Assembly (NCBI GenBank): GCA_022790575.1 | Contig: JAAVXM010000034.1 | Span: forward strand, 9,467-73,466 | Length of the DNA: 64,000 nucleotides | Origin: Clostridia bacterium | Lineage (GTDB): Bacteria; Bacillota; Clostridia; TANB77; CAG-508 | Direction of reading: 5' to 3' | Shown: positions 43,213 to 43,897 of the stretch, in pieces | Layout of the letters: every line of letters begins with the position of its first letter | Position numbering within the stretch: the stretch's first letter is position 1 | Program-made: the position numbers and the translations under genes | Notes under the pieces: generated by a model | Seen by the model: the letters and a program-made list of their open reading frames with translations, nothing else | Database searches by the model: none | What the model was told of the DNA's origin: nothing

Positions 43213-43300
43213 ATATATTATACAAGTAGAGAAATCTACAGTTGAAATCTTCCTAGTTACAATGTACCATTCGCTTTAGAATCATAAGGAGGGAAACATA
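43213..43300 (+). promoter_or_regulatory. Conserved 5' leader of cassette 1 (hairpin + anti-SD box)
   Basis: GTAGA gaaa TCTAC (43226-43239), and AAATCTTCCTAGT with CTTCCT at 43249-43254, complementary (one G-U) to the SD AGGAGG at 43287-43292. The leader is strongly conserved with cassette 2. Confidence 0.45.
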
Positions 43301-43654
43301 ATGGCTAAAGTTAGCGATTTGCTGTTAACCAAAGAAGAGAAACCGAAAGGAAATCTCAAACTGGCACAGGAGACAGTTGAAGCCTATATCAAACTGATAG
43401 AGGAAGAAAGAAGTGTGCATGGAAGATACAAGACAGATGAACTCATTGGGTGGATTAGTCCAAATGGATGGGGTGAAAACCATAACCAAGGATGTATGAT
43501 ACTGTATAGTTTAAAGGACACAAACCCTATGGTTCTGTTTAATAAAGGTATAGCTGTTGAGCAGTTGAAATACCTTTTAAAACAGAATGGGCTTTATGTT
43601 AAAGAAGTGGAACGAGCAGATTTTCCGCCAATTCTTACAATTCGTATCCTTTAA
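43301..43654 (+). CDS. Small hypothetical protein, paralog A (117 aa)
   Basis: MAKVSDLLL...VEAYIKLIEEE..HGRY...NGLYVKEV...IRIL. Strong RBS. GC is visibly higher than in flanking DNA. No family was recognised. Confidence 0.7.
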   Translation: MAKVSDLLLTKEEKPKGNLKLAQETVEAYIKLIEEERSVHGRYKTDELIGWISPNGWGENHNQGCMILYSLKDTNPMVLFNKGIAVEQLKYLLKQNGLYVKEVERADFPPILTIRIL

Positions 43655-43689
43655 AGGATTTCCAAATTTAGATAAAATTTGAACACATA

Positions 43690-43721
43690 AGAGCATTTTC
43701 CATTACTATGGAAAATGCTCT
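43690..43721 (+). terminator. Terminator of cassette 1
   Basis: AGAGCATTTTCC attactat GGAAAATGCTCT followed by TTGTG. Confidence 0.55.
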
Positions 43722-43777
43722 TTGTGTATATATGATATATACACATGAAAATTGAATTTTTATAGAAATATGTAAAG

Positions 43778-43806
43778 TTGACAAAACAGCAAAAGGATGT
43801 TATTAT
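43778..43806 (+). promoter_or_regulatory. Sigma-A-type promoter of cassette 2
   Basis: TTGACA (43778-43783), 17-nt spacer, TATTAT (43801-43806). The ORF-track start at 43778 is this -35 box. Confidence 0.55.
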
Positions 43807-43897
43807 ATATCATGTTACTAGTAGAAGTATCTACTATTTAAATCTTCCTAGTATCAATGTCCGTATAACATTTATTCGACTAAAGGAGGAGAACATA
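43807..43897 (+). promoter_or_regulatory. Conserved 5' leader of cassette 2 (hairpin + anti-SD box)
   Basis: GTAGA agta TCTAC (43821-43834), AAATCTTCCTAGT with CTTCCT at 43844-43849, and SD AGGAGG at 43884-43889. Confidence 0.45.

Follow-up and report, generated by a model that had tools for sequence, protein, structure and literature searches.

In a 64,000-nt window of genomic DNA from a Clostridia bacterium (contig JAAVXM010000034.1) we analyzed two short 5' leaders that share a conserved core and precede two small genes. The genes belong to two expression cassettes, each complete, which follow one another in tandem on the + strand at positions 43184–44327 of the window. Each cassette consists of a near-consensus sigma-A promoter, a leader of about 80 nt, a Shine-Dalgarno sequence (SD), a small coding sequence (CDS) and a strong intrinsic terminator. 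Both carry a perfect SD, AAGGAGG, with the ATG 8 nt downstream. The core has the same layout in both leaders: a hairpin P1 of the form GUAGA-N4-UCUAC, a 7-nt linker, the 13-mer AAAUCUUCCUAGU and the box CAAUGU. We will argue that this conserved stretch of 40 bases is probably a small regulatory RNA element.

The promoter of cassette 1 (43184–43212) combines TTGACA, a 17-nt spacer and the extended -10 element TGtTAATAT (10 of 12 matches, TG present), from which a transcription start site (TSS) at about 43219 is predicted. P1 (GUAGA-GAAA-UCUAC, 43226–43239) starts 13 nt past the -10 box and has a predicted pair probability of 0.95–0.99. The 13-mer at 43245–43257 includes a candidate anti-SD, UCUUCCU, at 43248–43254. 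A mini-hairpin P2, read from the sequence as AAUG-UAC-CAUU (43261–43271), has the conserved CAAUGU as its 5' arm and is followed by the SD at 43286–43292. A third hairpin, P3 (AACA..GCUA-AAGU-UAGC..UGUU, 43295–43326), is predicted around the AUG at 43301 with -7.1 kcal/mol (z -1.95). The CDS (43301–43654) encodes an orphan protein of 117 aa. The terminator (43690–43721) was read from the sequence as a 14-bp stem with a 4-nt loop, followed by UUGUGUAU.

Cassette 2 repeats this order. Its promoter (43778–43806; TTGACA, 17-nt spacer, TGtTATTAT) shows 11 of 12 matches with the TG present, and the predicted TSS is at about 43813. P1 (UAGUAGA-AGUA-UCUACUA, 43819–43836) has a non-GNRA loop on a stem of 7 bp. 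The 13-mer lies at 43840–43852 with the candidate anti-SD at 43843–43849, which pairs with the SD (43883–43889) at a predicted probability of 0.6–0.99. Between them folding places P2 (AAUGU-CCGUAUA-ACAUU, 43856–43872), and P3 spans 43892–43920 (-7.1 kcal/mol, z -2.47) around the ATG at 43898. The CDS (43898–44263) encodes a paralog of 121 aa and is followed by a terminator at 44295–44327 with a core of 10 pairs at 44300–44323. The two terminators have their outer sequence in common (AGAG...UUACUAU...CUCUUUGU), while the stem interiors are wholly unlike yet still complementary. The terminators on contigs L006–L008, introduced below, likewise start with AAGAG and end with CUCUUUU.

The original prediction had described the two leaders as alignable, with a 5-bp hairpin of differing loops (GAAA and AGUA) and an invariant 13-mer, and as better conserved than the coding regions. 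All of these elements are present at their positions, and the alignment extends from the -35 box to the ATG; only the gap between AGT and CAATGT had to be corrected from 3 bases to 2. Identity between the two copies amounts to 80% in the 40-nt core, compared with 60% in the CDS nucleotides and 34–39% in the proteins (34% by BLASTP). The linker between core and SD, 20–22 nt long, is 52% identical, which is near random. Exact copies of the 13-mer occur twice in the window. Its 10-nt part ATCTTCCTAG is found at three sites in the genome assembly (1.6 Mb, 77 contigs), the third being a chance match.

The encoded proteins belong to a very small family. A HMMER scan of 1.84 billion cluster representatives, covering about 15 billion proteins, detected four further members (P0003 to P0006), and a profile search of a 5.8-billion-cluster set returned the same six. 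Word-indexed protein searches retrieved the window's own proteins only. Relatives were absent from 200 same-family genomes and from IMG/VR, plasmids and phages, and an exact search of 185,579 GTDB species genomes for the DNA pattern of the family's ribosome binding site (RBS) and N-terminus gave no hit. Each of the four outside members comes from a short Logan metagenome contig, and the flanks of these contigs are unrelated. No family was assigned to the cassette proteins by Pfam, NCBIfam, PHROG or PADLOC, a PDB sequence search gave no match, and fold searches against PDB and BFVD gave no significant match. The AlphaFold (AF2) model of the 117-aa protein is a confident alpha/beta structure with a mean predicted local distance difference test score (pLDDT) of 82.7. 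The isoelectric point is 5.1–6.7 in five of the six proteins and 8.5 in one.

Two of the outside leaders carry the core. It reads GUAGA-GCAA-UCUAC, 7 nt, AUCUUCCUAGUUUCAAUGU in L006 and GUAGG-GUAA-UCUAC, 7 nt, AUCUUC-UAGCUUCGAUGA in L007. Our leader comparisons cover these four leaders from three organisms, a number at which covariation tests have no power. Across them the core is 66–83% identical, and their proteins 35–52%. The linker from core to SD reaches 52–62% identity and differs in length in each copy (20, 22, 25 and 26 nt). In contrast, the loop (4 nt), the linker between P1 and 13-mer (7 nt), the spacer behind the 13-mer (3 nt) and the distance from the -10 box to P1 (13–14 nt) are fixed. 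Because the core is kept with the same spacings while the adjacent linker is near random, we conclude from these sequence comparisons that the core is under purifying selection, which is the firmest conclusion of our analysis.

One could also imagine that the core by itself lacks a function and that its similarity, left over from duplication, conversion or recent transfer, is striking only beside fast-evolving proteins. The copies in the window are tandem paralogs, and the cassette looks horizontally mobile, with a shifted GC content at third codon positions (GC3) and no match listed in 30 same-genus genomes. We nevertheless give this explanation hardly any credence. The linker 3' of the core is near random and of different length in every copy, which rules out recent duplication, gene conversion or transfer and largely refutes this explanation, and the core is kept on contigs with unrelated flanks.

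Two leaders of the family are built differently. In L009, P1 and the 13-mer are absent and P2 is kept (GAUGU..ACAUU). This natural variant, seen at L009 410–497 and L008 44–131, retains P2, SD and P3 without P1 and 13-mer; the core is therefore dispensable for having the gene. L005 also lacks the core and has another hairpin (GAGUUGA/UCAACUC), whose CU-rich 3' arm is able to pair with the variant SD GGAGAG.

Further copies of the core were sought by pattern and by model. The exact degenerate leader pattern gave no hit in IMG/VR and none in the 185,579 GTDB species genomes; in JGI metagenomes only four chance matches appeared, located inside a DsbB-like CDS. The covariance model R1 found the two known copies only in the own genome, and only chance matches in 150 genomes of the order, for example one inside a cysK-like CDS. 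Three other contigs were 100% identical and the clusters held no further members, so that strain variants offered no polymorphism. None of the four leaders reached a gathering threshold in Rfam 15 (4227 models including preQ1, SAM, purine, T-box, thermometers and ribosomal-protein leaders). The original prediction of an unclassified leader is borne out by the lack of any relevant Rfam match at E≤10 over the four leaders, the sole Rfam overlap being a chance match to sno_ncR1 (E 2.2; 21 bits, where the threshold is 94). The conserved core is real, and it represents an unclassified and very rare candidate cis-regulatory leader.

We then considered whether the core is an element of RNA or of DNA. 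P1 loops are of GNRA type in three of the four leaders (GAAA, GCAA and GUAA) and vary only at the free N, and the single copy without such a loop, copy 2, has a stem of 7 bp instead of 5. Both stem substitutions occur in L007, one each in P1 and P2; they are A to G changes that yield G·U pairs. The P2 arms persist in both window copies, L006, L007 and L009 around loops of 3, 7, 8, 3 and 15 nt. Taken together, the GNRA loops, the longer stem, the G·U changes and the P2 arms favor a core that acts as RNA rather than DNA, none of them amounting to strict covariation.

As DNA, the palindrome GTAGA-N4-TCTAC together with the second box ATCTTCCTAG would be an operator, at which a repressor bound just past the promoter blocks transcription. 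The half-sites are indeed invariant, the perfect 5-bp inverted repeat with its 4-bp spacer resembles in geometry the Gram-positive LexA box, GAAC-N4-GTTC, and both the distance to the -10 box (13–14 bp) and the spacing between the boxes are fixed. An operator gives no account of a spacer that varies exactly as a GNRA loop would or of a stem that is longer in the copy without this loop, and substitutions leading to G·U pairs would be half-site mismatches in DNA. Nor is there a sign of a regulon: GTAGR-N4-TCTAC occurs at three other places in the 1.6 Mb, about the number expected by chance. With no regulator gene among the shared neighbors and mostly acidic to neutral cassette proteins whose model contains no helix-turn-helix, we regard the operator as an unlikely explanation.

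The 13-mer could pair with the SD. As had been claimed, its CUUCCU is complementary to AGGAGG, at a distance of 34–35 nt, and the SD is the only sequence able to pair with the 13-mer whose position is conserved in all four mRNAs. The RNAalifold consensus of the four leaders consists of P1 and the helix UCUUCCU:AGGAGGA. The anti-SD:SD helix is part of the minimum free energy (MFE) structure of copy 2, L006 and L007. Duplex energies of the four leaders are -8.4, -9.6, -9.6 and -6.3 kcal/mol. In each of the four leaders the SD opening energy fell when the anti-SD was scrambled in silico.

The start codon lies in a predicted structure as well, one that the original prediction had not mentioned. 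In the region from -8 to +28 the predicted hairpin is AACAUA-a-U-g-GCUA-(4 nt)-UAGU-g-A-UAUGUU, with the AUG enclosed. When this segment is folded alone, P3 is the MFE structure in all six members, with -6 to -7.1 kcal/mol and z-scores of -1.9 to -3.6 in five of them. Pairing is kept in 62 of 66 cells, including one compensatory change (A-U to U-A, L009) and three of wobble type, which is not significant against shuffles. The observed codons make P3 more stable than 85–97% of synonymous resamples at family codon usage and than 95–100% at host usage, which suggests that the first eight codons are under selection at the RNA level. The spacer AACAU(A/U) is kept in five of the six members including the core-less L009 (L005 has AACAAA), and P3 may explain its conservation.

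A number of other signals were looked for in the leader. A coding leader is rejected, the reading frame being open in copy 2 only. A leader peptide was discarded likewise, as the conserved CRAUG opens only open reading frames (ORFs) of 3–14 codons without SD. Such tiny ORFs are found in all four leaders (43262–43279 and 43857–43868 in the window, and in L006 and L007), and in L006 the stop codon overlaps the main start (UAAUG); they are probably incidental. An internal promoter within the leader is not conserved, and by eye no site of the TRAP, HutP, CsrA, RAT or PyrR type fits. No antisense or small RNA partner of the leader was found in the genome.

Composition sets the family apart from its surroundings. 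The GC content of the CDS is 37–43% in all six members, compared with 23–29% for the remaining contig DNA and 27% for the whole window. GC3 is 0.27–0.43 in the six family genes and 0.10–0.19 in host genes including rpsF and rpsR. As GC3 is foreign in every host, it is a property of the family and not of this genome alone. The same type of promoter precedes all six members. Foreign composition and patchy distribution together point to a mobile cassette that brings its own expression signals.

In the window the cassette pair is flanked on one side by spoIVB and a yvyF-like zinc-ribbon gene, and on the opposite side by two tRNA-Gly(UCC) genes and rpsF-ssb-rpsR. A comparison of the cassette DNA with 30 same-genus genomes returned nothing for it among the matches listed. 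In the closest genome, G291 (G291:C7, L032; compared with window positions 43120–44347), the yvyF-like gene is inverted and the tRNA-Gly promoter follows directly. This layout and the lack of a listed match identify the pair as an accessory insertion with a local inversion. The tRNA-Gly genes of the window (44380–44618) are an identical pair 117 bp apart, with a perfect consensus promoter, TTGACA-17-TATAAT, ahead of them. On the contigs of the outside family members no regulator is a shared neighbor. The C-terminal end of a histidine-kinase-like gene, identified by eye, adjoins the homolog on L006 (1521–1628, - strand) and on L009 (2–361); it is convergent in L006 and upstream in L009, and this pairing may be a coincidence.

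Our best explanation, which we put forward tentatively, is that a very rare orphan cassette carries the core as a cis-acting RNA module of its 5' leader, and that this module partly closes the RBS together with P3. Near the predicted start of the transcript, at a distance of about 7 nt, P1 would form a GNRA-capped 5-bp hairpin. After the fixed 7-nt linker the UCUUCCU strand would pair with the SD, AGGAGG(A), and the loop closed by this helix would hold the small hairpin P2, while P3 encloses the AUG. Anti-SD:SD helix and P3 would thereby partly occlude the RBS and set or regulate translation, probably with an effect on mRNA stability too. Such an arrangement would be self-contained and independent of host-specific factors, in keeping with a cassette that apparently moves between AT-rich hosts. 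Nor would a transcription factor be needed, since the encoded proteins are mostly acidic or neutral and no regulator is a shared neighbor. Our analysis establishes the conservation, the complementarity and the consensus fold; formation of the helix in vivo and its control of translation are what we infer.

Several observations weigh against this explanation. RNAalifold counts no pair with compensatory changes for P1 and the anti-SD helix, the covariation term being -0.12; with an invariant SD and four sequences this test has no power. The folds of whole leaders are no more stable than those of shuffled sequences (z +0.1 to -1.6). Among 218 genes of the own genome with an AGGAGG SD, the duplex energies rank only in the top 5–16%, with shuffle p-values of 0.03–0.38. 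SD opening requires 5.2, 5.5, 1.95 and 3.6 kcal/mol at a background median of 1.4 and a 95th percentile of 6.0, and the opening energy of the whole RBS lies only in the top 16–46%. In copy 1 the MFE structure and the ensemble prefer to pair UAGUUA..AUGU with ACAU..UGGCUA of the start region. The sole natural change in the anti-SD, deletion of a C in L007, weakens it and is uncompensated. L009 has no anti-SD, and L005 no core, though the arm of its own hairpin can pair with its SD. The position of the TSS rests on prediction. Finally, the fixed spacings and the invariant stem exceed the needs of simple SD masking and point to recognition by a factor.

The original prediction of SD sequestration is thus only partly supported. 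Complementarity and consensus fold stood, together with the MFE structures of three leaders; copy 1 uses another partner, masking stays within background, the natural change is uncompensated and covariation among homologous leaders is absent. The proposed covariance model search left the motif unmatched in Rfam and returned only the two copies in the own genome. The anti-SD:SD helix is plausible, and as yet indistinguishable from ordinary or chance complementarity.

The rigid geometry could be accounted for if the core were an RNA recognition site instead of an SD mask. P1 and a single-stranded 13-mer would then be bound or cleaved by a factor conserved among hosts, for example an RNA-binding protein, an RNase or the ribosome itself. 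The core might in that case serve as a 5' stabilizer or as a processing signal controlling mRNA half-life. SD base-pairing needs neither the invariant stem nor the rigid spacings of loop, linker and spacer, and P1 stays 13–14 nt from the -10 box, at a predicted position of about +7, where Firmicute 5' stabilizer hairpins act. All other signals of the cassette are tuned for high expression, and the predicted SD masking is unremarkable. A stabilizer hairpin, however, requires neither a conserved stem sequence nor a 13-nt tail, and the SD is the only conserved complement of the 13-mer. There is no known candidate for such a factor; the encoded proteins, acidic or neutral for the most part, would be poor RNA binders, and the occurrence of the cassette in different hosts would demand a widely conserved factor. 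We consider a recognition site rather unlikely on balance, while giving it more weight than the operator.

Returning to the cis-acting module, the closure of the RBS could also be read as that of a sensor, either an RNA thermometer based on melting of the anti-SD:SD helix or a ligand-binding riboswitch of small size. The helix contains a G·U pair and has the moderate stability (-6 to -10 kcal/mol) of thermometers, and SD and AUG both lie within predicted helices. Yet the predicted pairing is nearly unchanged from 25 to 45°C. The UUUU tract of fourU elements and the ROSE signature are absent, the strand being UCUUCCU, the gene belongs to no Pfam family, and Rfam gives no thermometer or riboswitch match. 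A ligand pocket would need a multi-helix or pseudoknot core, which is missing, and the loop enclosed by the helix is unconserved. With conservation confined to a 5-bp tetraloop hairpin plus one single strand, a riboswitch aptamer is unlikely, and we judge a sensor of either kind to be very unlikely.

A bolder version of the module would be a new self-contained translational switch on a mobile cassette, made up of P1, linker, 13-mer and P3, which keeps the gene silent until a specific cue arrives. A factor of the host or of a phage might provide this cue; alternatively, the GNRA loop might dock onto the CC:GG pairs in the anti-SD:SD helix. We think this improbable; if true, it would be a portable regulatory RNA of an uncatalogued kind. 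If the module itself is real, it constitutes a small uncatalogued 5'-leader motif on a gene family of which about 15 billion predicted proteins include only six members. As such it would offer a handle on the control of an orphan gene that has its own near-consensus signals and a codon composition foreign to all hosts. Its practical value is limited, as four copies are insufficient for a claim based on covariation. In summary, the conservation is real and the anti-SD reading is not yet separable from chance complementarity.

The module shares features with several known systems. Among leaders that sequester the SD, such as translational riboswitch platforms, fourU and ROSE elements, it has in common an upstream pyrimidine-rich strand complementary to an SD 34–35 nt away, a G·U pair in a helix of moderate stability and a place in the 5' untranslated region of a monocistronic gene. 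It differs from them in having no aptamer-like conserved core, no UUUU or ROSE signature and no Rfam match, and in a predicted masking that is no stronger than in ordinary genes and does not respond to temperature. Gram-positive LexA-type operators provide a DNA counterpart to the 5+4+5 palindrome just downstream of the -10 box, but here the sequence is another one, the spacer follows the GNRA rule, substitutions keep G·U pairs and the genome contains no regulon. Leader operators of the autoregulatory or protein-bound kind, for example ribosomal-protein leaders and the MS2 coat-protein hairpin, likewise present a short tetraloop hairpin with an invariant stem and a flanking strand near the start; no binder is known for the module, and the cassette proteins are mostly acidic or neutral without a recognizable RNA-binding fold. 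The 5' mRNA stabilizer hairpins of Firmicutes are represented by ermC, the aprE leader and phage SP82. They match the module in being small stable hairpins a few nt behind the 5' end (here predicted) of a monocistronic mRNA with strong expression. To our knowledge, the known 5' stabilizers are based on structure and show no sequence conservation, whereas here the stem sequence does not vary and a conserved strand of 13 nt follows it at a fixed distance.

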